64,000 nt of DNA from Phycisphaeraceae bacterium (GCA_963674705.1 OY771506.1:1152001-1216000); one strand, 5' to 3'; counted from the stretch's first letter, positions 2,783 through 61,639 are shown. Numbers and translations are program-made. Notes: a model not told the origin generated them from the sequence alone.

Positions 2783-3064
2783 CCACAGATAAACACTCAA
2801 ATAACAGTGTATTTCAGGTATGAAGCACAACCAAACCCCCTCTCCCCTCGGGAGAGGGCCGGGGTGAGGGCCGGCGTTATTTTGGTTTTCGGTATTAGTG
2901 TGATCGCGTAATCAACCCGGCCCTTATCCTAACCTTCTCCCAGGGGGAGAAGGGACCAGGCCGAAGATTATCTATACGACCTTCTCTTATCTGCGTAATC
3001 GCCGTAATCTGCGGATACTTCTTCTGACTTCTTATCCGTGTTCATCCGTGTTTATCTGTGGCTA
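2780..3064. repeat. Nested inverted-repeat element (TAGCCAC-terminated family) containing an inverted pair of CCCTCTCCC..GGGAGAGGG palindromes
   Basis: Perfect 17-bp IR TAGCCACAGATAAACAC (2780-2796) / GTGTTTATCTGTGGCTA (3048-3064); inner inverted pair 2836-2874 / 2917-2954. Confidence 0.85.
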
Positions 3065-3074
3065 AAAAATACTG

Positions 3075-4896: not shown

Positions 4897-4927
4897 GGAT
4901 ACTGACTTTCTTTGCAGCGTTATTTAT

Positions 4928-5109
4928 TTAGTCACAGATGAACACGAATGAATACAGATAAGAGTTTAGAAGAAGCATCCGCAGATTGCGGTGATTGAGC
5001 AGAATAAAAAAGAATCATTTATGAAGTCTTTTAATTCGGGTCATTTGCGCAATCTGCGGACAAAACCTCTTATTCTTATCCGTGTTCATCCGTGTTCATC
5101 CGCGGCTAA
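4928..5109. repeat. Nested inverted-repeat element (TAGCCAC family), overlapping the lpxK stop
   Basis: 36-nt outer arms 4928-4963 / 5074-5109 (30/36 complementary); perfect 13-bp inner IR TCCGCAGATTGCG 4978-4990 / 5048-5060. Confidence 0.85.
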
Positions 5110-6168
5110 AACCGCTTTTAATAAGTCGTCTATTGCATCGGCACCTTCCAGGAAGCTCAGGCCGAGGGTCGGGCGGAGGATGGGTGGATCGGTGTTTTCA
5201 TGTTGAAGCAATTCGGCCCACTTCACCCAGTCTTTTTCCGTGGTTACTACGGCATCGGCGTTATGTTGTTTGGCCTTTTTCAGGATGCGCTGGATGTCGT
5301 TCGTGGTGTAGGTGTGGTGGTCGTCGAAGGCATCGATGTGCAGGAGCTTGCCGGCGGCGGATTCGAGCATGCGTTTGAAAGCTTCGGGGTTGCCGATCGC
5401 GCAGGCGGCGGTGACTTGTTTGGCTTGCAGGTGGTCGGGCGGAAAAACGGGGTCTGACCCCGTTTCGGTAAAACCGGTCCATGTGGTGGCGGCGTGGGCC
5501 AGGGGTGGTTTATTGGTGAGGGTCTGGATTTGTTGATCGAGTTGCGAGAGCGCCTCGGCGGAAACCTGGTCGCATCTTGTGATGATGATGGCGTCGGCGC
5601 GTTTGAGGTTATGTTTGGATTCGCGCAATAGGCCTCTTGGCAACAGGTGATCGAAGCCGAAGGGTCTGGTAGCGTCGATCAGGACCAGGTTGAGGTCGCG
5701 GGCGACGCGGCGGTGTTGGAAGCCGTCATCTAACAGGAAGATGGTGGTTTCGGGATGGTCAGCGAGGACGCGGCGGGCACCTTCGACGCGATCGGGATTG
5801 GGCATGACGGGGACGGCGCTGCCGAGTGCGTTTTGGATTTCCTGGGCTTCATCACTGGTGGCCCCCTTCTCACCGGCCATGTAACCGCGCATGAGGACGG
5901 CGGGCTTGTGATTCAGGGCAATTAAGCGGCGGGCGAGTTCGATGACCATGGGGGTCTTGCCGGTGCCGCCGGTGGTGATGTTGCCGACGCTGATGACGGG
6001 GCGGTCGAGCTTGATGGTCTTCTTGATGCCGAGGTCGAAGAGCTTGTTGCGTGTGGCGGTGGCAAGGTGGTAGCCGGGCGTGAAGATAGCGAGTCCGAGG
6101 CGTGTGGCGGCGGCGGCGGGGTCTTTAGCGTGGCCGGACATGATGTCGTAGAGGCGTTGGTGGTTCAT
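5086..6168 (-). CDS. lpxK: Tetraacyldisaccharide 4'-kinase
   Basis: PVISVGNITTGGTGKTP, RGY, SDEA, LLDDGFQH, LLPRGLLRE, F.DHH.Y, TTEKD.VK. Confidence 0.95.
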   Translation of the reverse strand: MNHQRLYDIMSGHAKDPAAAATRLGLAIFTPGYHLATATRNKLFDLGIKKTIKLDRPVISVGNITTGGTGKTPMVIELARRLIALNHKPAVLMRGYMAGEKGATSDEAQEIQNALGSAVPVMPNPDRVEGARRVLADHPETTIFLLDDGFQHRRVARDLNLVLIDATRPFGFDHLLPRGLLRESKHNLKRADAIIITRCDQVSAEALSQLDQQIQTLTNKPPLAHAATTWTGFTETGSDPVFPPDHLQAKQVTAACAIGNPEAFKRMLESAAGKLLHIDAFDDHHTYTTNDIQRILKKAKQHNADAVVTTEKDWVKWAELLQHENTDPPILRPTLGLSFLEGADAIDDLLKAVLAADEHG

Positions 6169-6343: not shown

Positions 6344-6940
6344 TTATGCCGGTTCGATGCCGAGGTTTTTGAGGGCGGGGATGAGTTTTTGCATGGGCAG
6401 GCCGACGACGGTGGTTTCGTCGCCTTCGACGGTGAGGGGCCAGCCGGCGTCGCGGCGGTCGAAGAGGTTGTATCCGCCGGCCTTGCCTTTCCACTGGTTG
6501 GAGTCGAGGTATTCGTCTAGCTGAGCGCTGTTCAGCTTGCCGAGGGTGACGCGTGCTTCGTCGGCGAAGGCGTTGGGCTGGTCCATGCTGTCGGTGAGTA
6601 GTGCAACCCCTGTGATGACGGAATGGGTGTTGAGCTGGAAGTGCTGGATCATGCGTCCGGCGTCTTCGCGGTCGACGGGCTGGCCGATGAGCTTACCGTT
6701 GGAACCGACGCAAATCGTGTCAGCAGATAGGATTACGACGTCCGGCGTGGCTGCTTCCCGCAGGCTGAGGGCTTTTTCGATCGCGAGCTTGGCGGCGAGG
6801 GTGCTTGCGGAGCCGGGGTGGTCGTTATCCGGCTGAGGCGGATCGTGGAACGGCGGCTCGGTCTGCTCGAACGTGAAGCCGGCTTCGGTAAGCAATAGCG
6901 CGCGTCGCGGGGATCGGCTGGCGAGGATGAGGTTTGGCAT
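6344..6940 (-). CDS. maf: Maf-family nucleoside triphosphate pyrophosphatase
   Basis: LILASRSPRR, KA, LSADT, GKAGGY, VVGLP. Confidence 0.93.
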   Translation of the reverse strand: MPNLILASRSPRRALLLTEAGFTFEQTEPPFHDPPQPDNDHPGSASTLAAKLAIEKALSLREAATPDVVILSADTICVGSNGKLIGQPVDREDAGRMIQHFQLNTHSVITGVALLTDSMDQPNAFADEARVTLGKLNSAQLDEYLDSNQWKGKAGGYNLFDRRDAGWPLTVEGDETTVVGLPMQKLIPALKNLGIEPA

Positions 6941-7165
6941 GGGGTCTGGGGTCTAGGGTCCGGGGTCTGGCAAGACGGATGCGGTATCGCTTGCCGGTGG
7001 ATAGTGTAGCGGGGGTGTTGGGGTCTGGGGTTTAGGGTCCGGGGTCTGGCAAAGCCAATGCGGCCGAAGCTGTGAGGTGGTTTGTGTGGGTGCCGGGCTT
7101 ATGGCACTGCCGGTCTCCCACTTCCGACCAGACCCTAGACTCCAGACCCTAGACCCAACACCTAA
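6941..7165. repeat. Heptamer tandem repeats (GGGGTCT/AGACCCC family): two direct copies and one inverted copy
   Basis: 6941-6973 and 7020-7052 are 33-nt direct repeats with 1 mismatch; complementary CCAGACC/CTAGACC tract at ~7128-7165; first tract abuts the maf ATG. Confidence 0.85.
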
Positions 7166-20048: not shown

Positions 20049-21020
20049 ATGGCTGTGAAGTTTCAGGACTACTACCAGACACTCGGTGTGAAGCGCGATG
20101 CTTCGCAGGATGAGATCCAGCGCGCCTACCGCAAGCTGGCGCGGAAGTATCACCCTGACATGAATAAGGAAGCGGGTGCTTCGGAGAAGTTCAAGCAGAT
20201 CGGCGAGGCGTACGAGGTTTTAAAGGACCCGCAGAAGCGTAAGAAGTACGACACGCTCGGTGAGAACTGGAAGGCGGGTCAGGAGTTTCGGCCGCCACCG
20301 GGTTGGGAATCGCACTTTAGAAGCGCCGGCGGACGTGGCGGGGCCGAAGGCTTCCAGTTCCAGTCCGGTGGGCAGTTCAGCGACTTCTTTGAAGCGTTCT
20401 TCAGCCAGATGGCATCCGGGGGCGGCGCGCAGGGCGGCCGGGGCGGCGGGTTTGAAGATTTGTTTAACGGTGCACGCCAGCAGGGACGGCCGCAGGCTGC
20501 GCCGATGCAGGAGGCTGCGCTGAGCATCAGCCTGCATGAAGCGTTCCACGGCACAACGCGTTCGCTGCAACTGCAAGGACCCGGCGGCACGAAGACCATC
20601 GAAGTGAAAATCCCGGCGGGGACCACGGACGGTGCGAAGATCCGGCTGGCGGGCGAAGGCTTGATCCTCAAGGTCAGCGTTGCGGCCGATCCGCGTTTCA
20701 CGGTATCCGGGCGGGACCTGACGACGGATGTGAAGATCACGCCCTGGCAGGCGGCGCTTGGTGGGAAGGTGGATGTTCAAACGATGGATGGAACCGTGAG
20801 TTTGAATATCCCCGCAGGTGCAAGCAGCGGGCAGAAGCTACGGCTCAAAGGCAAAGGTTTACCGAGCCGTCAAAAAGATAAGGCTGGCGATTTGTATGTT
20901 CGGCTGATGATTGTCATGCCCAAGGTGCTGACCGAACAACAACTGCAGCTCTACGAAAAACTGAAAGAAGCAAGCACACCCAACGCCGGGTCTGAGCGAA
21001 GTAAAGGACCGGGTACGTAA
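20049..21020 (+). CDS. cbpA: DnaJ class B co-chaperone (CbpA-like, no zinc finger)
   Basis: [14 protein letters not shown]-domain; G/F-rich region; C-terminal DnaJ domain; no CxxCxGxG repeats. Confidence 0.88.
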
Positions 21021-21070
21021 CGAGAAAACCGCGGATACCCGGCCCTTCGCTGCGCTCAGGACCGGCGTTG
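20979..21070. repeat. Inverted pair of REP-like elements (ACCCGGCCCTTCGCTGCGCTCAGGACCGGCGTTG family)
   Basis: Reverse copy 20979-21014 (inside the dnaJ 3' end) and forward copy 21037-21070. Confidence 0.8.
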
Positions 21071-21111
21071 AGTGACACTCATTAACAATAATCATCCGAG
21101 GGAGACTCAAT

Positions 21112-24923: not shown

Positions 24924-25631
24924 ATGAGTAAGGGATTATTCACAGCCGGTTTGGCAGGGATGGGTCTTTTGGCCTCGGTGAGCGCGGCTGATGCCGGCCT
25001 GATCATCACGGGCGTCATCGACGGCGGCCTGCTCGGCGGCGAACCCAAGGTGGTCGAACTGTATGCCACCAGCGACATCGCTGATCTGAGTGTTTACGGC
25101 GTGGGCGCCGCCAACAACGGCGGCGGGACCGATGGTGTCGAGTTGGTGCTGTCCGGCTCAGCCTCGGCCGGCGACTTCATCTACATCGTGGAAGATGATG
25201 ACCAGGGTGCACTGGGTGTTGGCTTCGCCAGCTACTTCGGCTTCACCCCGTCGCTGATTTTTGACGGCTCGTTCGCCAACGGCGGCGCGGCTTCGATCAA
25301 CGGCGACGATGCGATCGAACTATTCTACGACGCCAGCGGCGCGTTTGCCGGCCTGGAAGCCGTCGTGGATGTCTTCGGCGACATTAATGTCGATGGCTCG
25401 GGCACGGCCTGGGATTACCTGGACGGCTGGGCCTACCGCGTGGACAACACCGGGCCGGACGGCTCGACGTTCGTGATCAGCAACTGGTCCTTCAGCGGGA
25501 TCAACGTGACCGATGGCACGACGGCCAACGATCAGATCAACCCGCCGTTCCCGATCGGCAGCTATGTCCCCGAGCCGGCCAGTCTGGTTTTGTTGGGATT
25601 AGGCGCGTTGGCGGCCCTGCGTCGGCGATAA
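24924..25631 (+). CDS. PEP-CTERM surface protein with lamin-tail-like domain
   Basis: LIITGVIDG.L.GG.PK.VELY..DI.DLS.YG...NNGGG; INGDDAIEL; W.YLDGWAYR; VPEPASLVLLGLGALAALRRR. Confidence 0.88.
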   Translation: MSKGLFTAGLAGMGLLASVSAADAGLIITGVIDGGLLGGEPKVVELYATSDIADLSVYGVGAANNGGGTDGVELVLSGSASAGDFIYIVEDDDQGALGVGFASYFGFTPSLIFDGSFANGGAASINGDDAIELFYDASGAFAGLEAVVDVFGDINVDGSGTAWDYLDGWAYRVDNTGPDGSTFVISNWSFSGINVTDGTTANDQINPPFPIGSYVPEPASLVLLGLGALAALRRR

Positions 25632-28904: not shown

Positions 28905-29116
28905 GAGATTGCAAAAAAACCCCTAAACTCCGGCCGGGGCACTTGCCTCGGCCGGAATACGGGGCTTAATTTTCACAGAAATTAAATCAAAAAAGGCTTT
29001 CAAAGTGACCGTGTTCGTGGTATATTCCTAGTGCCGTTACTCCCGAAGCCAGTAAGGCCTCGGGTTGTTTTCAGTGTTTGAGTTACTTCTTTTGTGGGAT
29101 CTTAAGGAGATTGAAG

Positions 29117-29689
29117 ATGAAGATTGCTAAGTTTGTTTTGCCCGTGATTGCTGCCGGCCTCGCCAGCTCCACCGCGTTCGGTGGCGTTGTTATCAACCAG
29201 ATCGACCAGGCGGTCGTTGCTGGCTACCAGGCCAACGAAATCGTTTGGGAAGGTGGCGCTGACTGGACCAGCTCGGCTCTCGTAGTCGATCTGACCTCCG
29301 GCACGGCCTATCAGGACGCCTTCGGTGGCGACGCCCCCTACACCCCCGCTCTGCTGGTTCCGTTCCCGAGCGTTGAGTTCGATACCTATGTCGGTATCGT
29401 CAACGGCGTTGGCAACGGTATCGCCGGCGGTGCTGGCGACCTCGGTGGTGGCCCCCTGAGCCTGAACGCCAACCAGATCAGCGTTTCCTGGTTCAACACC
29501 GGCACCGATGACACCGCAGCCGTCCGTATCGGCATGATCACCCTCAGCACAGATGCAGCCGGCACATGGAAGCTCCTGTCCGGTGGCGTGATCACTGAAG
29601 GTACCGTCGAAGGTGGCGCGCTGGTTCCCGAACCGGCCTCGCTGGCTCTGCTCGGCCTCGGTGGTTTGGCCGCCCTGCGTCGTCGCTAA
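29117..29689 (+). CDS. PEP-CTERM protein, tandem array member 1
   Basis: AAGGAG SD before ATG 29117; DWTS..L.VDL..G, EFDTYVG, SVSWFNT, VPEPAS. Confidence 0.9.
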   Translation: MKIAKFVLPVIAAGLASSTAFGGVVINQIDQAVVAGYQANEIVWEGGADWTSSALVVDLTSGTAYQDAFGGDAPYTPALLVPFPSVEFDTYVGIVNGVGNGIAGGAGDLGGGPLSLNANQISVSWFNTGTDDTAAVRIGMITLSTDAAGTWKLLSGGVITEGTVEGGALVPEPASLALLGLGGLAALRRR

Positions 29690-29722
29690 TCGACACGCAA
29701 CCAAATAGGTTAAAACCTACTG

Positions 29723-29760
29723 CAACTGCCCGCCTAACCGCGGGCAGTTGTTTTTTATTT
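29723..29760 (+). terminator. Intrinsic terminator
   Basis: CAACTGCCCGC / GCGGGCAGTTG stem followed by TTTTTTATTT. Confidence 0.85.
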
Positions 29761-29938
29761 ACCGGACAGATTGGCCTGTAAAACCGGGTATCGACTTCTT
29801 ACAATAAAGAGTGTGCATGATGCAGCACTTATGTCGCGGTCTGGTAGCAGATAGCAAATCATGCCCCGTCAATGTAATCCCGTTTCGGGGCCGCCATGCC
29901 GTGTAATATCTTTCTGGGATTGAATTGGAGGTAGAGCT

Positions 29939-30514
29939 ATGAAACGCATCGCTCAGTTTGCCATGTCTGCGATCGTTGCCGGCCTCGCTTGTGGTTCGGC
30001 GTTCGGCGGTTTGAGTATCAATCCCGTAAACGACCCCAACGTCCCGGAGGGCTGTGTCGCGTGTGAAATTATCTGGGAAGGTGGCGCCGACTGGACCAGT
30101 GCCGCGCTGGTAATTGATCTGACCAGTGGCTCGGTCTATCAAAACGTCTATGGCGGCGATGCTGCTCCCAATCCAGCGTTGTTCGCCGTATTCCCGGAAC
30201 TTGAGTTCGACACGTATGTCGGCATCATCGGCGACGGCACGGCTGGTATTGCAGGCGGCGCGGGCGACCTCGGCGGCGGGCCGCTGAGTCTGAACGCCCC
30301 CCAGATCAGTGTGTCCTGGTTCAACACGGCTACTGATGATACCGGCCCGGTGCGCATCGCCATGATCACCCTCACGGATGATGCCCGGGGTACCTGGAGC
30401 ATGTTGTCCGGCGGCGTGATAACCCAGGGCACCCTCATACTCCCGTGCATCCCCGAGCCGACCTCGCTGGGGCTGCTTGGCCTCGGCGGACTGGCGCTAC
30501 TGCGTCGGCGGTGA
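29939..30514 (+). CDS. PEP-CTERM protein, tandem array member 2
   Basis: GGAGG SD; same family motifs; CIPEPTS tail. Confidence 0.9.
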   Translation: MKRIAQFAMSAIVAGLACGSAFGGLSINPVNDPNVPEGCVACEIIWEGGADWTSAALVIDLTSGSVYQNVYGGDAAPNPALFAVFPELEFDTYVGIIGDGTAGIAGGAGDLGGGPLSLNAPQISVSWFNTATDDTGPVRIAMITLTDDARGTWSMLSGGVITQGTLILPCIPEPTSLGLLGLGGLALLRRR

Positions 30515-30539
30515 TTTGCCGGATATCGCTATCAAAATT

Positions 30540-30576
30540 GCGGCTGCTTTCCCATGCGGTTGGCAGCCGCTTTTTT
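30540..30576 (+). terminator. Intrinsic terminator
   Basis: GCGGCTGC / GCAGCCGC stem followed by T6. Confidence 0.75.
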
Positions 30577-30762
30577 ACGGTTGAACGCGGATTTCACTGT
30601 TAACCGTCATGCCGGTCATATACAATCAAGATGGTCCGAAGTCTTCGCCGCCCTCGGAAAACGGATGAATCTACGGCGTTTGGGGTCAGGTCCTGCTATC
30701 GCACCGTTTTTCAACGAGGGAATATGGGGGCTGCAACAACTTTTTTATTAAGGAGATATCCG

Positions 30763-31347
30763 ATGAACCTTCCCAAGTGCGCGTGTGCTTTACTTGTGGC
30801 TGGTGCTGTCGCCTCACCGGCGGCGGGCTACGCTAATCTCGAGGGTGAGATGTATTTCAATCCGGCCGGCCTTGATGGGTATGTTGCCAATGAATTGATC
30901 TGGACAGGCGAGACCGACTGGACCAGCGCCGCTCTCGTGGTTGATCTGACCACCGGCTCGGTCTACCACGACGCCTTCGGGGGTGACGGCCCATACACCC
31001 CCGCTCTGCTGGTTCCGTTCCCGAGTGTTGAGTTCGATACGTATGTCGGTATCGTCAGCGGTGAGGGTAATGGTATTGCCGGTCCCGCAGGTGACCTCGG
31101 CGTCGGCATCCTGAGCCTCGATGCCCCGCTGATCAGTGTCTCGTGGTTCAACACCGGCACCAACGACATCGGCCCGGTGCGTATCGGCATGATCACGCTC
31201 AGCAATGATGCTCATGGCACGTGGTCCTTTCTCTCCGCGGGGCAGGTATCTACCGGCATGGTTTACGATGGCATGATGTTCTTCCCAGAACCTGCCTCAC
31301 TTGCGCTACTAAGTCTTGGCGGACTGGCGCTACTGCGTCGGCGATAA
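30763..31347 (+). CDS. PEP-CTERM protein, tandem array member 3
   Basis: AAGGAG SD before ATG 30763; family motifs; FPEPAS tail. Confidence 0.9.
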   Translation: MNLPKCACALLVAGAVASPAAGYANLEGEMYFNPAGLDGYVANELIWTGETDWTSAALVVDLTTGSVYHDAFGGDGPYTPALLVPFPSVEFDTYVGIVSGEGNGIAGPAGDLGVGILSLDAPLISVSWFNTGTNDIGPVRIGMITLSNDAHGTWSFLSAGQVSTGMVYDGMMFFPEPASLALLSLGGLALLRRR

Positions 31348-31396
31348 GTTGTGGCACTGTGATCGCATAATTCACCCTGCTTGAAACAGGAGACTA

Positions 31397-31975
31397 ATGA
31401 TGAAGATGACTAGTTTGTTTATGTCTGTGATCGTTGCCGGCCTTGCTTGTGGTTCGGCGTTCGGTGGCGCCATTATCAGCCAGGTAAACGACCCCAACGT
31501 CCCAGAGGGCTACTGCGCGTGTGAGATTGTCTGGGAAGGTGGTGCCGACTGGACCAGTGCCGCGCTGGTTATTGATCTGACCAGTGGCTCTGTTTACCAG
31601 GACGCCTTCGGTGGTGACGGCCCGTACACCCCCGCCCTGCTGGTTCCGTTCCCGAGTGTTGAGTTCGATACGTATGTCGGTATCGTCGGAGGTGAGGGTA
31701 ATGGTATCGCTGGCGGCGCCGGTGACCTGGGCGGCGGCGCGTTAAGCCTGAATGCCCCCCATATCAGCGTCTCCTGGTTCAACACCGGCACCAACGACAC
31801 CGCCCCGGTGCGTATCGGGATGATCACCCTCAGCGATGATGCCAATGGTACATGGAAACTCCTGGCTGGTGGCGTTGTAATCGAAGGTACTCTTGAAGGC
31901 GGGTGGTGCATCCCCGAGCCGACATCGCTTGGGCTGCTTGGCCTTGGCGGACTGGCGCTGCTGCGTCGGCGGTGA
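31397..31975 (+). CDS. PEP-CTERM protein, tandem array member 4
   Basis: AGGAG SD; family motifs; CIPEPTS tail. Confidence 0.9.
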   Translation: MMKMTSLFMSVIVAGLACGSAFGGAIISQVNDPNVPEGYCACEIVWEGGADWTSAALVIDLTSGSVYQDAFGGDGPYTPALLVPFPSVEFDTYVGIVGGEGNGIAGGAGDLGGGALSLNAPHISVSWFNTGTNDTAPVRIGMITLSDDANGTWKLLAGGVVIEGTLEGGWCIPEPTSLGLLGLGGLALLRRR

Positions 31976-32026
31976 AGTGTAGAACGATAAGCATGTGATT
32001 CATAACCCCGAAACGGGAGGCTTGCG

Positions 32027-32605
32027 ATGAAGATGACCGGCCTGCTTATGTCGGCGGTTGCTGTGGGGCTCGTGAGTAATGTTGCACTGGGCAGCATCAG
32101 CATTAATCAGATTGACGATCCGAACGTGCCCGCCGGATATGTGGCCAACGAGATTGTCTGGAACGGTCCGGCCGACTGGACCAGTGCTAATCTCTGGATC
32201 AACCTGCCGACGGGTACGGCTTATCAGGACGCCTTCGGTGGTGACGGCCCGTACACCCCCGCCCTGCTGGTTCCGTTTCCGAGTGTTGAGTTCGATACGT
32301 ATGTCGGGATTGTTGGTGGTGAAGGCAACGGCATCCATGGGCCTTACACAGACGCTGGTGTAGTAAACGACTTAAGCATGAATGCTCCCCAGATCGGTGT
32401 TTACTGGTACAACACCGGCACGCAGGACACCGGCCCGGTGCGTATCGGGATGATCACGCTCAGTGAAGATGCGACGGGCGACTGGAAGTTGTTATCCGCC
32501 AACGTGCTCTACAGCGGAGATGTAGTAAACGGCGCGATGGTGCCGGAGCCGGCGTCGCTGGGGCTACTCTGTGTTGGTGGTTTGGCGCTACTGCGTCGGC
32601 GTTGA
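32027..32605 (+). CDS. PEP-CTERM protein, tandem array member 5
   Basis: GGGAGG SD; family motifs; VPEPAS tail. Confidence 0.9.
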   Translation: MKMTGLLMSAVAVGLVSNVALGSISINQIDDPNVPAGYVANEIVWNGPADWTSANLWINLPTGTAYQDAFGGDGPYTPALLVPFPSVEFDTYVGIVGGEGNGIHGPYTDAGVVNDLSMNAPQIGVYWYNTGTQDTGPVRIGMITLSEDATGDWKLLSANVLYSGDVVNGAMVPEPASLGLLCVGGLALLRRR

Positions 32606-35224: not shown

Positions 35225-35257
35225 CCCGAACCCCGAACCCCGAACCCCGAACCCCGA
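35225..35257. repeat. Heptamer tandem repeat (CCCGAAC)4.7, G-rich on the transcribed strand, abutting the epimerase stop
   Basis: Read directly; adjacent to the stop codon at 35258-35260. Confidence 0.9.
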
Positions 35258-36214
35258 CTATAGGTATTGCTTCTGGTACCACGCCCAGAGTTTAGCCAGG
35301 CCATCGGCGACGGGGATTTTCGGCGCGTAGCCCAACAGATTGCGTGCCTTGTCGATGTTGGCGAAGGTGATCTTCGGTTCGCTCGCCGGGGCGGGCGGGG
35401 TTTCGAGGATTGCTTTTTTACCGATGAGGTCTTCGACGATGGTGACGAAGTCTTTCATGAGGACGGGTTCGCCTCGTCCGAGGTTGATGACCTCGTAGCC
35501 GAGCGGTTTATCCATCGCGGCGCTGACACCGGAGACGATGTCTTCGACAAAGGTCCAGTCGCGTTTCATGTCGCCGCCGTCGAAGAGGGTGATTGGTTCA
35601 GCCCGTACGATGCGGTCGGTGATCATGAAGGGCATCATGTCGGGCCTGGCGCGTGGGCCGTAGACGCTGAAGAATCGCAGGGCGGTGAAGTTCATGCCGT
35701 GCAGGTTGTGATAGGTGTAGCCCATCAGCTCGATGGCTTTTTTGCTTGCAGGGTAAGCGGAGAGCGGCAGGTTACAGGCGTCGGTCTCGATGAACGGCAG
35801 GTTCTGGGTTTTGCCGTAGATGCTGCTGGTGCTGGCGAAGGCGAAGACTTGCACATCGTTATGATGCGCCGCTTCGAGGAGGTTGACCGAGCCGGTGATG
35901 TTGACGTCCGTGTAAAGCGGGGCGCGTCCGATGGAGTAGCGGACGTTCGCCATCGCGGCGAGGTGCGCGACGGCGCGCGGCTTATGATCGGCGAAGATAG
36001 CTTTGACCGCTTCGTTATCGCGGATGTCCACTTCCCAGAGCGTGAAGTTTTTGTCGTCGATAAAGTTGGCGACGTTAGCGTGCTTCTGTTCGACGCTGTA
36101 GTAGTCGTTGAAGTTGTCGATGCCGATGACGTGACAGCCCTGCGCGAGTTTGACCTGGCAGAGGTGGGAGCCGATGAGGCCGGCTGCGCCGGTGATTAGT
36201 ACGGTGTTGGACAT
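35258..36214 (-). CDS. NAD-dependent epimerase/dehydratase (UDP-glucuronate 4-epimerase-like)
   Basis: LITGAAGLIGSH, IDNFNDYY, HLAAMANVRYS, YPASKK, RFFSVYGP..RPDM; start re-assigned to ATG 36214. Confidence 0.9.
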   Translation of the reverse strand: MSNTVLITGAAGLIGSHLCQVKLAQGCHVIGIDNFNDYYSVEQKHANVANFIDDKNFTLWEVDIRDNEAVKAIFADHKPRAVAHLAAMANVRYSIGRAPLYTDVNITGSVNLLEAAHHNDVQVFAFASTSSIYGKTQNLPFIETDACNLPLSAYPASKKAIELMGYTYHNLHGMNFTALRFFSVYGPRARPDMMPFMITDRIVRAEPITLFDGGDMKRDWTFVEDIVSGVSAAMDKPLGYEVINLGRGEPVLMKDFVTIVEDLIGKKAILETPPAPASEPKITFANIDKARNLLGYAPKIPVADGLAKLWAWYQKQYL

Positions 36215-36246
36215 ATCGGGTTTCGGGTATCGGGTTTCGGGTATCG
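36215..36246. repeat. Heptamer tandem repeat TCGGGT(T/A) x4.5, C-rich on the transcribed strand, abutting the epimerase ATG
   Basis: Read directly. Confidence 0.9.
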
Positions 36247-37238: not shown

Positions 37239-37287
37239 CGATACCCGATACCCGATACCCGATACCCGATACCCGATACCCAGACCC
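37239..37287. repeat. Heptamer tandem repeat (CGATACC)6+CAGACCC, G-rich on the transcribed strand, abutting the lpxC-fabZ stop
   Basis: Read directly; stop codon at 37288-37290. Confidence 0.92.
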
Positions 37288-38604
37288 CTACTTTCCTTGA
37301 TCGTCATCGACCAGCATGAATTTGACCTCGGCTTCGGCGGCGAGGTCCTCCGCGACGTAAGCCCGGCATCGCATGTGGACGATCCGGCCGCGCATCTTGA
37401 CGCTGACGGCCTCCATCATGAGTTGGTCGCCCGGGGTTACGGGACGGCGCAGTTTCACGCGGTCCAGAGATAACAGGACGGCCAGCTTGCCGGTGTGTTC
37501 CAGTTTCTGTCCGATCAGGACGCCGGAAAGTTGCGCCATCGCTTCGACGACGAGCACGCCGGGCATGATCGGTGTCCCGGGGTAATGTCCCTGGAAGAAA
37601 GGTTCGTTGATCGACACATTCTTGATGCCAACCGCGCGGCGGTCGCCGTCGATTTCGACGACACGATCGACCAGCAGCATGGGGTAGCGGTGTGGCAGGA
37701 ACTTGTGGATCTTGCGGATGTCGAAGACGCTTTGGTGTGAGCCGATGTAGTTGCGGACGCTGGCTTCGTGCGTCTTGATCAGTTGCCGGACGAGTTGGTG
37801 ATTCATCGCGTGCCCGGATTTGTGTGCGATGATTCGGCCCTTGATCGGGCAGCCGAGCAGGTAGAGGTCGCCGATCAGGTCCAGCAGTTTGTGTCGGGCC
37901 GGCTCGTCCTCGAAGCGCATCTGGTTACTGCCCATCGGGCCGTTGTCGCCGATGACCAGCACGTCGTCTTCGGAGAGGTGTGAGCCTTGTCCGGTTTCAC
38001 GCAGTGCGCGGGCTTCGCGTTCGAGGATGTAGGTTCTTGCTGGGGCGATTTCGTGAGCGTAGTTGCCGTTCTGGAAGCTGAACTGATGGGTTTGTCGACC
38101 GAGCGGATTATTCGGGCCGTAGTCCAGCTCGTAGAGCAACTGGGTGTCGTCGGTTTCATTGCATGGCATGGCGGCGACCATGGCATCATCCTGCTGAACG
38201 ACGACGGGATACCGAACGACAAGGCAATGCTTGGGCTGGTCGCTGGATTCGGTGCCCGCCTCGGTCAGGGCGTCGAGGAACGGTTTTGCCGAGCCGTCCA
38301 TCGCGGGCAGTTCGGGGGCATCGATCTCGATCTGGAGGTTGTCGATGCCGAGGCCGGCGATGGCGGAGAGGCAGTGTTCGCAGGTTTCGATGATGGCGTC
38401 GCCGGAGCGTAGCGCGGTTCTGCGTGGCCGACGGACGACGTGGGAGACCAGAGCGGGGACTTCGATGCCGCCGAGGTCGGTACGGATAAAGCGCACGCCG
38501 TGATTGGGCTCGGCGGGCTTGAAAGTGACCTTCGCCGGCTGTCCGTGGAACAGCCCCGGGCCGGAGAGGGAAACGGGTTTGCAGATGGTCTGCTGGCCTG
38601 ACAT
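37288..38604 (-). CDS. lpxC-fabZ: Bifunctional LpxC deacetylase / FabZ 3-hydroxyacyl-ACP dehydratase
   Basis: EHCLSA, ELPAMDGSA, EIAPARTY, RHKLLDLIGD, SGH (LpxC); LPHRYPMLLVDR, FQGHYP..PIMPGVL.VEAMAQ (FabZ). Confidence 0.95.
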   Translation of the reverse strand: MSGQQTICKPVSLSGPGLFHGQPAKVTFKPAEPNHGVRFIRTDLGGIEVPALVSHVVRRPRRTALRSGDAIIETCEHCLSAIAGLGIDNLQIEIDAPELPAMDGSAKPFLDALTEAGTESSDQPKHCLVVRYPVVVQQDDAMVAAMPCNETDDTQLLYELDYGPNNPLGRQTHQFSFQNGNYAHEIAPARTYILEREARALRETGQGSHLSEDDVLVIGDNGPMGSNQMRFEDEPARHKLLDLIGDLYLLGCPIKGRIIAHKSGHAMNHQLVRQLIKTHEASVRNYIGSHQSVFDIRKIHKFLPHRYPMLLVDRVVEIDGDRRAVGIKNVSINEPFFQGHYPGTPIMPGVLVVEAMAQLSGVLIGQKLEHTGKLAVLLSLDRVKLRRPVTPGDQLMMEAVSVKMRGRIVHMRCRAYVAEDLAAEAEVKFMLVDDDQGK

Positions 38605-43366: not shown

Positions 43367-44473
43367 ATGACCACCACCACTGAGGACAAGGTGATGCCCA
43401 TGGCCTCGGACCAGCTACCGACCGACAAACTGATGGACATGCTCTATCAGATGATGCTCATCCGCCGATTCGAAGAGCGGACGATGCAGGCGTACCAGCA
43501 GGCGAAGATCGGCGGGTTCTGCCACATCTACATCGGCCAGGAGGCCACCGCAGTCGGGGCGATCGCCGCCCTGAAGGATGACGACCCGGTGATCACCGCC
43601 TACCGCGATCACGGCCACGCCCTGGCACGCGGGATGCACCCCAACTACTGCATGGCGGAGATGTACGGCAAGATCACCGGTTGTGCCAAGGGTAAGGGCG
43701 GGTCGATGCATATGTTCGACAAGCCTCACCACATGTACGGCGGCCACGCGATCGTCGGCGGGCAGTGTCCGCTGGGTGTCGGGCTGGCGTTCGCTTCTCA
43801 GTATGAAAAGAAAGACAACGTCACGGTCTGCTTCTTCGGCGACGGTGCGATCAACCAGGGCGCGTTCCACGAAGCGATGAACCTCGCGGCGATCTGGAAC
43901 CTGCCGATCCTCTTTGTGGTTGAGAACAACGGCTACTCGATGGGTACCGCGATCAACCGCGGGACCGCTGCGGCCGACAATCTCGGCGCGAAGGCGGCGG
44001 CGTACGGCATGCGTTACGCCGAGTGCGACGGCATGGACGTGCTGGACACGTACAAAGTCTTCAAACGCGAAGCCGATGCGTCGCGAGGCAGCACGAGCAG
44101 CGCCCTCGGCCTTGAAGATGCCGGCGGAGGCCCCTGCTTCATCAACGCCAAGACCTACCGCTATCAAGGCCACTCCATGAGCGACCCGCAGAAGTACCGC
44201 TCGAAGGATGAGGTCAACGAGCGCAAGGAAAAAGACTGCATCAACACGCTGGTCAACTACCTGGTCGAAAACGATCTGGCGTCACAGGATCAGATCAACG
44301 AACTGGACAAGAAAGCCAAGGTCGCCTCACGCGACGCCATCACCTACGCCGAGCGATCTCCCGACCTGCCGATGTCCGAGATGTACACGGATATCTACGC
44401 CCAACCGTACGGCCCACCGTTCGTGAAGGGCGGACTGCCGAAGATGATCACGGATGGGAATTCGGGGGAGTAG
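43367..44473 (+). CDS. pdhA: Pyruvate dehydrogenase E1 alpha subunit
   Basis: IGGFCHIYIGQEA, YRDHGH, GKGGSMH, FGDGAINQG..N, TYRYQGHSMSDP. Confidence 0.96.
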   Translation: MTTTTEDKVMPMASDQLPTDKLMDMLYQMMLIRRFEERTMQAYQQAKIGGFCHIYIGQEATAVGAIAALKDDDPVITAYRDHGHALARGMHPNYCMAEMYGKITGCAKGKGGSMHMFDKPHHMYGGHAIVGGQCPLGVGLAFASQYEKKDNVTVCFFGDGAINQGAFHEAMNLAAIWNLPILFVVENNGYSMGTAINRGTAAADNLGAKAAAYGMRYAECDGMDVLDTYKVFKREADASRGSTSSALGLEDAGGGPCFINAKTYRYQGHSMSDPQKYRSKDEVNERKEKDCINTLVNYLVENDLASQDQINELDKKAKVASRDAITYAERSPDLPMSEMYTDIYAQPYGPPFVKGGLPKMITDGNSGE

Positions 44474-44511
44474 ATCGGGTATCGGGGTTCGGGTGTCGGG
44501 TATCGGGAAGA
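44474..44511. repeat. G-rich heptamer tract (left arm) starting at the first base after the pdhA stop
   Basis: ATCGGGT ATCGGGG TTCGGGT GTCGGGT ATCGGG AAGA. Confidence 0.9.
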
Positions 44512-44518
44512 TAACCGC

Positions 44519-44893
44519 ATGATGGATAACGATTCATACCGGGGTTTGGAGGTCTGGCAGGTTGCCATGGACCTCGTTGAAGAGGTTTACCGTGTAACAG
44601 CGTTGTTGCCGGAGGCCGAGAAATACGGACTAACTAGCCAATTACGAAGGGCGACTACATCCATACCCGCCAACATCGCAGAGGGTTACGGCCGATCACA
44701 CCGGGGTGATTACTTGCGCCACCTGTCGATCGCACGCGGTTCGCTAATGGAGATAGAGACTCACCTGATGATCGCGGTGAGGCTCAAACAACTGGAACGT
44801 GAGATGGCCATCCCTGCATGGCAACTCACTCAACGCGTCGGCCAGATGCTTACGAAACTCATCCAGGCCTTGAAACAAAGCGAACAGGGTTAA
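44519..44893 (+). CDS. Four-helix-bundle protein (23S rRNA IVP / Avd-like family)
   Basis: SYRGLEVWQ.AM.L...Y, P..EKYGLTSQLRRA..SIPANIAEG.GR, L.IARGSL.E.ET.L. Confidence 0.93.
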   Translation: MMDNDSYRGLEVWQVAMDLVEEVYRVTALLPEAEKYGLTSQLRRATTSIPANIAEGYGRSHRGDYLRHLSIARGSLMEIETHLMIAVRLKQLEREMAIPAWQLTQRVGQMLTKLIQALKQSEQG

Positions 44894-44900
44894 CACACCC

Positions 44901-44937
44901 TCTTCCGATACCCGACACCCGATACCCGAAACCCGAC
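44901..44937. repeat. C-rich heptamer tract (right arm) ending at the base before the pdhB ATG
   Basis: TCTT CCGATAC CCGACAC CCGATAC CCGAAAC CCGAC; complementary to 44474-44511. Confidence 0.9.
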
Positions 44938-45972
44938 ATGAGAACCATCCAATATAGAGAAGCCCTCCGTGAAGCCATGCAGGAAGAGATGCGGCGTGAT
45001 GACCGTGTGTTCCTGATGGGTGAAGAGGTGGCGCAATACAACGGTGCTTACAAGGTCAGCCAGGGGATGCTCGATGAATTCGGGCCTCGGCGTGTGGTTG
45101 ACTCGCCGATCAGTGAGACCGGATTCTCCGGGCTGGGCATCGGCGCGGCGATGTACGGGCTTCGGCCGATCATCGAGTTTATGAGCTGGTCGTTCTGCCT
45201 CGTCGCGGCCGACCAGATCATCAACAACGCGCCGAAGATGCTATACATGTCAGGTGGACAATTCGGCTGCCCCGCTGTCTTCCGCGGCAACAACGGCGCG
45301 GGCGGTCAGCTTGGGTCGACGCACTCGTGGTGTGTGGAGTCGATGTTCTCCAGTGTGCCGGGGTTGAAGGTGGCGATCCCTTCGACGCCGCGTGATGCCA
45401 AGGGTTTGTTGAAGACGGCTATCCGGGATGAAGACCCTGTGTTCAATCTCGAATCCGAACGCATGCTCGGTTTGGGCGCGCGTGGCGAGAAGGATTTTTC
45501 TCGGTATATCAAGGACAATTGGGCCCCGCCGACGGTTGAAGAGGATGAGGATTTTAAGATCCCGTTCGGTGTCGCGGACATCAAGAAGCCCGGCAAGGAC
45601 GTCACCATCGTCGCCGCCGGCCGGCCGGTGCACTTTGCATTAGAAGCTGCTGAAGAACTTGAGAAGCAAGGCATCGATTGCGAAGTCATTGACCCGCGTA
45701 CGTATCGGCCGCTCGACATCGACACGATTGTACGAAGCGTACGTAAGACGAACTACTGCGTCGTCGTCGATCAGAGTTGGCCATTTGCGAGCGTCGGCGC
45801 GGAGATCGCGGCGCAGGTATATGAAAACGCGCTCGATGATTTGGATAACAAGGTGATCCGCGTCAACAACGACGACATCCCCGCCCCCTACAACCGCACG
45901 ATGGAACAGGAGATGCTCCCGAACGCGAAGAAGATCGTGGAGGCGGTGAAAGCGGTGACGTATAACAACTGA
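44938..45972 (+). CDS. pdhB: Pyruvate dehydrogenase E1 beta subunit
   Basis: YREAL.EAM.EEM, GEEVAQYNGAYKVS, DSPISE, GLRPIIEFM, EVIDPRT.RPLD; start ATG 44938. Confidence 0.95.
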   Translation: MRTIQYREALREAMQEEMRRDDRVFLMGEEVAQYNGAYKVSQGMLDEFGPRRVVDSPISETGFSGLGIGAAMYGLRPIIEFMSWSFCLVAADQIINNAPKMLYMSGGQFGCPAVFRGNNGAGGQLGSTHSWCVESMFSSVPGLKVAIPSTPRDAKGLLKTAIRDEDPVFNLESERMLGLGARGEKDFSRYIKDNWAPPTVEEDEDFKIPFGVADIKKPGKDVTIVAAGRPVHFALEAAEELEKQGIDCEVIDPRTYRPLDIDTIVRSVRKTNYCVVVDQSWPFASVGAEIAAQVYENALDDLDNKVIRVNNDDIPAPYNRTMEQEMLPNAKKIVEAVKAVTYNN

Positions 45973-56528: not shown

Positions 56529-56728
56529 GATTTGAGATTAGCGATTTGCGATGCATGATTAAGAGACCCGGCCCTTCGCTTCGCTCAGAACCGGCGTTGG
56601 GAAGACCAAGCCATTAGCCTTTAGCTATTAGCCATTAGCACAAATCCTAAATCATCAATCCGAAATCATAAATACAATTCCCTACACCCTACACCCTACA
56701 CCCTACACCCTACACCCTACACCCTACC
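56529..56728. repeat. Composite repeat cluster: GATTnnn tract, REP-like element, AGCCATT tract, AATCnnn tract, then (CCCTACA)6+CCCTACC abutting the coaB ATG
   Basis: 56529-56560; 56566-56601; 56609-56639; 56643-56673; 56680-56728. Confidence 0.9.
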
Positions 56729-61507: not shown

Positions 61508-61621
61508 AGCCATTAGCCATTAGCAGTTAGCAGTTAGCCATTAGCAAGAAGGCAAAGAGATACATGCTAAGGGCTCAAAACTGGACCCCTACGCCGGTCC
61601 TGAGCGCAGCGAAGGGCCGGG
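61508..61621. repeat. AGCCATT/AGCAGTT heptamer tract plus a reverse REP-like element
   Basis: 61508-61545 (5.4 units); 61587-61621 CCCTACGCCGGTCCTGAGCGCAGCGAAGGGCCGGG. Confidence 0.85.
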
Positions 61622-61639
61622 CTTCCTATCAACTATCTC

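Follow-up and report, generated by a model that had tools for sequence, protein, structure and literature searches.

A four-helix-bundle gene between complementary heptamer arms at the pdhA-pdhB junction, and its counterparts at other operon junctions

The pdhA-pdhB junction and its insert

We analyzed a 64,000-nt stretch (hereafter the window, with positions counted from its first base) of a Phycisphaeraceae bacterium (GCA_963674705.1 OY771506.1:1152001-1216000), in which a small gene encoding a four-helix-bundle protein lies between pdhA and pdhB and is enclosed by two complementary arms of tandem heptamers. An earlier note had suggested that this insert may behave as a messenger RNA intervening sequence, a mobile cassette that folds out to preserve the translational coupling of the two host genes. 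The locus contains the following features.

43367..44473, plus strand: pdhA, pyruvate dehydrogenase E1 alpha (TIGR03182, 422 bits, cut-off 394); upstream host gene with the 3′ end GGGGGAG-TAG
44474..44511, plus strand: left arm; TCGGG core five times at 7-nt spacing, then AAGA; begins at the first base after the pdhA stop
44519..44893, plus strand: four-helix-bundle gene (PF05635 / TIGR02436), 124 aa
44901..44937, plus strand: right arm; TCTT and then the (T/C)CCGA core five times, one every 7 nt; its sequence is complementary to that of the left arm, and its last base directly precedes the pdhB ATG
44938..45972, plus strand: pdhB, pyruvate dehydrogenase E1 beta (NF006667, 443 bits, cut-off 321); downstream host gene without a Shine-Dalgarno (SD)-like signal

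Direct reading of the sequence bore out the arms, the gene and the junction as the earlier note had placed them. The pdhA stop TAG occupies 44471-44473, the pdhB ATG begins at 44938, and removal of 44474-44937 leaves GGGGGAG-TAG-ATG. The pdhB start is backed by relatives of 92-94% identity that align from residue 1. The open reading frame (ORF) of the insert begins with an adjacent ATG pair (44519, 44522), and its SD-like GGGAAG lies inside the left arm. This arm is G-rich, with five G-tracts, and is predicted to be capable of forming a G-quadruplex when unpaired, and the right arm is C-rich. The perfect 18-nt core claimed for the arms is present (44489-44506 / 44905-44922). The arms had been said to be complementary over ~37 nt; they do pair, but the outermost pair is absent, as 44474 and 44937 are unpaired with each other and pairing begins at 44475/44936. 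Similarly, AAGA and TCTT pair, but only with a one-base bulge, and two of the four spacer dinucleotides do not match. The off-consensus unit described as mirrored between the arms is at chance level at this locus (one of three off-consensus bases mirrored, 0.94 expected); over 105 loci of the wider class, mirroring exceeded chance (160/458 compared with 130 ± 6).

The predicted energy of the arm duplex is -65.7 kcal/mol. Folding of this region had been proposed as a check; the fold of 44455-44950 proved stable (z = -5.3), and none of 100 shuffles was equally stable. Among 530 small genes in the genome, the pdh-site gene has the strongest flank pairing, and the second-ranked gene is another member of the four-helix-bundle family. 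In a close strain, the left arm is longer by 14 nt and the right arm by 7 nt (run X4). A joint of 44506 to 44901 in DNA-type contigs was considered as splicing and rejected, being a gene-less hairpin from another locus.

The 124-aa protein scores 118.2 bits with TIGR02436 (cut-off 24) and 121.3 bits with PF05635 (cut-off 33.8), the only domain that the enclosed gene matches, and it has no recognised catalytic domain. Its structure model consists of four helices (pLDDT 95.9) and superimposes on XCC0516 (2GSC) with a TM-score of 0.88, a root-mean-square deviation of 0.8 and 47% identity; BT_0352 (2RLD) is also matched. The structures 2GSC and 2RLD contain five chains each, and 2GSC is described as a homopentamer (PMC4990558). 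Judging from its homology to the 47%-identical 2GSC, the protein is likely to form a five-subunit ring. The dN/dS ratio between homologue pairs is ~0.06-0.10 in the four of eight pairs with measurable dS. This purifying selection suggests that the four-helix-bundle gene is likely expressed.

Recurrence of the gene and its arms in this genome and elsewhere

The genome contains six members of the four-helix-bundle family. Five of them separate two genes of the same orientation and are bordered by inverted arms, whose 7- or 8-base word differs from copy to copy. Tandem Repeats Finder located 423 period-7 arrays, of which 367 are intergenic and 241 hold 4.0-4.9 copies; 51 inverted array pairs lie within 1.2 kb, most of them gene-less. 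Runs of three, four, five and six AGC cores number 71, 25, 48 and 9. The same unit number occurs in words unable to form G-quadruplexes; therefore, we rejected the G-quadruplex as its general cause, although one might form in the pdh left arm. Read on the mRNA strand, arrays rich in G adjoin the upstream stop (median 4 nt; 16/25 within 10 nt), and C-rich arrays lie closer to the downstream start (33/70 within 15 nt), these distances being approximate because the 4135 genes were called with our own crude caller. The arms of the insert belong to genome-wide repeat families that are mostly gene-less, and the unit is no speciality of this junction.

We then sampled 192 loci with full flanks, which are best-scoring rather than random matches and include near-duplicates among the viral loci, and scored arms as present when pairing exceeded that of 95% of controls with swapped flanks. 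The enrichment of arms across the protein family, also named beforehand as a check, held: cognate arms were found in 156/192 loci (43/50 in the family, 23/27 in the phylum, 63/80 across several phyla in GTDB and 27/35 in viral contigs), and 112/192 passed a stricter shuffle test (z < -3). Stem geometry was taken from local alignment, as RNAduplex ends were too noisy. The stem has a median length of 36 bp; its first base lies a median of 1 nt past the upstream stop, and 79 of the 106 stems measured begin within 12 nt. The number of units per arm peaks at five (44/108 left arms and 53/108 right arms). The earlier note had further placed the likely SD of the insert in the left arm and proposed that the insert gates its own translation. 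An SD-like sequence does lie in the arm here, but the SD falls within the stem in only 39/117 loci, and SD sequestration was rejected as a family rule. In one locus (L049, G028:C23), the arms are reversed relative to the gene, with the C-rich arm upstream and the G-rich arm downstream.

Where both arms are periodic (112 loci), the left-arm unit follows the consensus Y-R-G-N-G-N-Y, and unit base 4 co-varies most with protein residues 65 and 57. After four near-duplicates were dropped, Q at residue 57 accompanied T at base 4 in 13/15 loci, C accompanied C in 9/11, and Y, W or H accompanied G in 49/62. Across 101 family genomes, in which kin are not independent, array counts rise with the number of four-helix-bundle genes (Spearman 0.56); arrays are present in 48/81 genomes with the gene and 4/20 without it.

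The same 101 genomes gave 87 pdhB matches, from which 82 loci were fetched, 67 with pdhA within the locus. The four-helix-bundle gene with heptamer arms occupies pdhA-pdhB in 11/67 relatives from several genera, and the other 56 junctions are cassette-free. Even congeners differ in arm word (TCGGGTA here; GGGTCTA/G in G016), but complementarity within each arm pair is kept. The congeneric G096 has a right arm only, and in G049 the spacer is 16 nt and resembles one left unit fused to one right unit. A clean TAG-ATG allele, the empty site that the earlier note had suggested looking for, was sought in the 67 junctions and not found. No abutting genes occurred in the 55 unfilled junctions with a resolved start, where the gaps were 10, 12 and 16 nt and then at least 40 nt. 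A gap of ~20 nt nearly abolishes termination-reinitiation (PMC10666635). Therefore, there was probably little ancestral coupling for an insert to preserve, contrary to the original proposal, and, with no cassette-free junction abutting, the idea that the cassette restores pdhA-pdhB coupling is weakly supported by these comparisons.

The lack of an SD of its own that had been noted for pdhB holds here and in 11/11 filled sites, compared with 37/55 unfilled sites. The pdhA tail is SD-like in 10/11 filled and 30/56 unfilled sites, and the pdhA stop is TAG in 8/11 and 9/56, again among genomes whose kinship makes the counts non-independent. An SD-less pdhB and an SD-like pdhA tail fit an SD donated by pdhA; arm sequence extending into pdhA may account for the TAG and the SD-like tails equally well. 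These data bear on the view that the insert is a coupling device kept by the host, in which the stem juxtaposes the SD-like pdhA end and the pdhB start and determines the ratio of PdhA to PdhB, with the protein as a switch. Both stem ends at the pdh locus lie within 1 nt of the stop and the start, the SD counts agree with it, and 11 genomes from several genera carry the insert. However, most junctions are cassette-free and none of the resolved ones abuts, the pdh-site genes do not form one clade (see below), stop and start come to lie 10 nt or less apart in only 18/79 cassettes, and the G-rich pdhA tail may be a mere arm extension. We regard such a device as unlikely.

The junction is also a hotspot of unrelated small inserts (L014, L017, L019, L021, L066, L084, L116 and others), and 24/56 cassette-free gaps exceed 200 nt. 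The L021 junction has a gene-less GAATGAC hairpin as well. In L070 (G004:C11), the pdh-site four-helix-bundle gene is frameshifted and the arms have diverged from one another.

On a tree that is weak owing to the short protein, the pdh-site genes cluster without forming a single clade, requiring six changes of site, two of them forced by strong branches. The pdh copy of G074 is the sister of a copy at another junction, presumably gltB-gltD judging by the protein start, in the congeneric G009 (genus g10). At the orthologous junction G074 has a gene-less hairpin, and at pdhA-pdhB G009 has an unrelated ORF. The two cassettes share 84% DNA identity and their flanks 91-93%; therefore, the move predates both genomes. 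These sequences indicate that the cassette was copied between sites, in one direction or the other, before G074 and G009 split. At flhB-flhA, G016 carries in place of the cassette a gene with 10-nt-word arms, which we take from its motif to be GxxExxY, and G096 carries a solo arm. One of four relatives is filled at fabH-fabD. Unfilled alleles at the pdh, flh, fab and g10 junctions carry other spacers, and no target-site duplication was seen by eye at these junctions, for which the relatives are possibly too distant.

This distribution could also arise if DNA-level repeats multiplied alone, through slippage, G-quadruplexes or cruciforms, and gene-less hairpins served as landing pads for various small genes whose products do not recognise the repeats. 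In keeping with this, most arrays are gene-less, unit number differs between close strains by the 14 and 7 nt mentioned above, GxxExxY and other small genes occupy the same junctions, and G-quadruplex formation has been demonstrated for Xanthomonas and Nostoc words (PMC4692102). Nevertheless, ~80% of the four-helix-bundle genes have cognate arms across phyla, array abundance tracks gene number with the above reservation about kin, the five-unit mode extends to words that cannot form G-quadruplexes, and GxxExxY arms have a different period. We consider this alternative quite unlikely.

The exact stop-to-start boundaries at the pdh locus would also suit a truly spliced or bypassed insert, whose ends are re-joined or whose stem base is crossed by ribosomes to give a TAG-ATG message. 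However, Rfam covariance models, including Gut-1 (RF01706) and self-splicing introns, gave only two sub-threshold snoRNA matches (E ≤ 1), both outside the arms, and no intron or ribozyme family match in eight cassette loci; boundaries differ among cassettes; and the 55 resolved relatives have no empty TAG-ATG allele. Moreover, intervening sequences (IVSs) of rRNA are not known to be re-ligated. For the rRNA IVS of Coxiella, fragmentation has been described (PMC4990558). We consider splicing or bypass very improbable. The Gut-1 lead (PMC2864571) added nothing.

A proposed explanation and the points that weigh against it

Overall, we suggest that the pdh insert is one copy of a cassette, made up of gene and arms, that changed operon junctions over evolutionary time and whose pentamer likely binds the repeats; we give this explanation a little better than an even chance. 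On the pdh mRNA, the arms would pair into a stem of ~36 bp with the gene in its loop. A ribosome terminating on pdhA would cover the first dozen stem bases, open the base of the stem and free the pdhB start, and the remaining duplex would still be worth -44.9 kcal/mol. The opened stem base would make the insert tolerable, and any dependence of pdhB on pdhA translation would be a by-product and not the reason for the cassette. Each subunit of the five-subunit ring is predicted to bind a single unit of the open, single-stranded arm, most likely as RNA, and such binding would compete with stem formation and thereby keep gene and word matched. Gene-less hairpins and solo arrays may be the same arms minus the gene. 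The gene likely moves or is lost via recombination at the arms; no transposase or target duplication was seen. The stem may, like that of rRNA IVSs, be cleaved by RNase III without re-ligation of the ends. The mobile, IVS-like cassette of the earlier note is thereby retained as one that relocated over evolutionary time and is built like the ORF-bearing IVSs of 23S rRNA.

A stricter reading makes the cut itself the selected function: RNase III would cleave the stem, free the gene as its own RNA and split the operon message. The anatomy is that of the Coxiella 23S IVS, which is cut by RNase III at the first heptamer (PMC4990558), the median stem of 36 bp would be suitable, and the genome has an RNase III gene. 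However, pdhB would then keep a short C-rich leader without an SD, the Coxiella cut removes the SD of the ORF but purifying selection acts on the gene studied here, and both the five-unit mode and the solo arrays would be left unexplained. Therefore, we judge a selected cut decidedly unlikely.

Several observations weigh against the relocating cassette and its repeat-binding pentamer. The arm test fails in 36/192 loci, including one of the six genes of this genome, where the sixth and most divergent family member has no arms. The distance from the stem to the downstream ATG is looser than that at the stop (median 10 nt, n = 95; 30/95 within 6 nt). Residue-word contrasts on supported branches amount to only one or two pairs; with so few independent contrasts, shared descent can explain the covariation. 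For several abundant heptamer words, this genome contains no cognate gene, and arrays persist without a close gene elsewhere: G096 has 142 pattern matches and one distant homologue, and G061 has 17 and none. GxxExxY genes bear arms of 9-10-nt words at similar sites; therefore, paired arms are not peculiar to the four-helix-bundle protein. In addition, the g10 move is old on the sequence comparison and bears on past, not present-day, mobility, and gain is indistinguishable from loss.

More tentatively, and as a proposal that we think somewhat more likely wrong than right, we speculate that the pentamer recognises heptamer arrays of five units in a sequence-specific manner, through a code linking protein residues to bases, and that gene and arms together constitute an undescribed mobile cassette that is transposase-free and targets stop codons. 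The rRNA IVSs would be its rRNA-resident form, the orphan heptamers of Xanthomonas, cyanobacteria and this lineage would be its gene-less form, and the arrays, hundreds in a genome, would be its binding sites or products.

Related systems and further observations

The closest published counterpart is the helix-45 23S IVS of Coxiella burnetii with its S23p protein (PMC4990558), whose protein belongs to the same family and whose terminal inverted repeats form a long stem that has the ORF in its loop. Heptamers in its stem have already been published: upstream of the ORF, GACAGAT is repeated in tandem two to three times, with an additional degenerate copy, and the number varies between strains (PMC4990558). 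In contrast, the pdh cassette is found immediately behind a stop codon in an operon of protein-coding genes and not in an rRNA helix, its gene is under purifying selection, and hundreds of gene-less arms exist alongside. Given its location, it is IVS-like and not an rRNA IVS. Intergenic heptamer arrays also occur as the STRR (short tandemly repeated repetitive) sequences of cyanobacteria. The GGGAATC repeats of Xanthomonas and the GGGGA(C/T)T repeats of Nostoc are intergenic heptamer arrays with a preferred size of about four units and inverted pairs, with the G-rich strand just after stops and the C-rich strand just before starts (PMC4692102), the same polarity as measured here. That paper ascribes the four units to G-quadruplexes, a poor fit to the non-G words of our genome. 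It names no protein partner, does not contain "four helix" and leaves open the function, which "remains to be elucidated" (PMC4692102). Its supplement file 2 lists, without comment, an array of GGGAATC located 6 nt downstream of the bccP stop and overlapping the start of XCC0516.

Avd of diversity-generating retroelements (DGRs) has the same fold, and its pentameric barrel binds RNA: all five protomers contact an RNA stem-loop, with bases flipped into crevices between protomers (4DWL; bioRxiv 10.1101/2023.10.23.563531). The homology to Avd claimed in the earlier note holds for the fold (TM-score 0.76, weaker than the 2GSC and 2RLD matches) but not for the family profile NF033474 (score 19.7, cut-off 80). 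No reverse transcriptase is adjacent, the neighbours being pdhA and pdhB, and the single RVT_1 match of the genome lies ~756 kb from the pdh cassette. This is a lone reverse transcriptase at G000:C1:1952900-1953526 (L168), a 430-aa open frame with RVT_1 only. The REP/REPIN-RAYT systems (PMC3116915, PMC3733652) resemble the present one in having a gene between its own inverted repeats and many gene-less palindromic intergenic copies; here, however, the enclosed gene is not an HUH (Y1) transposase and the arms are tandem heptamer arrays. Judged by these sequence features, the pdh cassette is not a DGR, a RAYT or an Rfam intron. The TRAP attenuation protein is a ring that binds one spaced trinucleotide repeat of single-stranded RNA per subunit, in competition with hairpins; the counterpart here would be the left-arm unit of consensus Y-R-G-N-G-N-Y. 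The likeness is one of working principle only, as the fold is unrelated and binding is predicted here.

Beyond the Coxiella IVS, we found no paper on an operon-resident class of gene plus arms or on its link to dispersed heptamers, in a search with poor coverage of subscription journals. The cassette joins three open questions, namely the function of S23p and other four-helix-bundle proteins, the origin of ORF-bearing rRNA IVSs and the over-representation of heptamers between bacterial genes. If our proposal is true, it would add a ring protein that binds repeats and looks programmable, as well as a way for genes to move without a transposase; coupling at pdh would be a secondary story. The geometry of five units per pentamer and the pairing of residue with word allow a direct and cheap binding test.

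The window contains further gene-less members of these repeat families (no strand assigned).

35225..35257: array of the pdh repeat family, CCCGAAC x4.7
36214..36246: array of the pdh repeat family, TATCGGG x4.7; the array stops where a minus-strand gene starts
37239..37281: array of the pdh repeat family, CGATACC x6.1, adjoining the stop of the minus-strand ORF 37288-38604
6940..7156: hairpin with a sister word, TGGGGTC arrays / CCAGACC array

At 56609-56727, three heptamer words (AGCCATT, AAATCAT and CCCTACA) stand in a row that ends at an ATG, and such composites recur in the genome. A 36-42-nt REP-like repeat occurs in inverted pairs (20977-21074, 56560-56601, 61587-61628) and twice adjoins AGCCATT heptamer arrays.

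The GxxExxY / PDDEXK_3 (PF13366) genes with inverted 9-10-nt-word arms of their own at similar junctions are as follows.

G000:C1:2957918-2958265, 2220402-2220743 and 2217459-2217800 (L297-L299)
L278:3028-3420

The copy at 2957918 has an in-frame TAG, and two GxxExxY genes flank a moxR-associated four-helix-bundle cassette. Gene-less arrays of 10-nt words (ATCCGTGTTC type) lie at 2981-3069 and 4924-5110 of the window, one of them a hairpin with a 110-nt loop, and are likely the gene-less form of GxxExxY arms. Elsewhere in the window (29105-32605 and 25562-25631), about five related genes form a tandem array with spacings of ~830 and ~630 nt that ends in a PEP...RRR tail, which we take to be PEP-CTERM-like.

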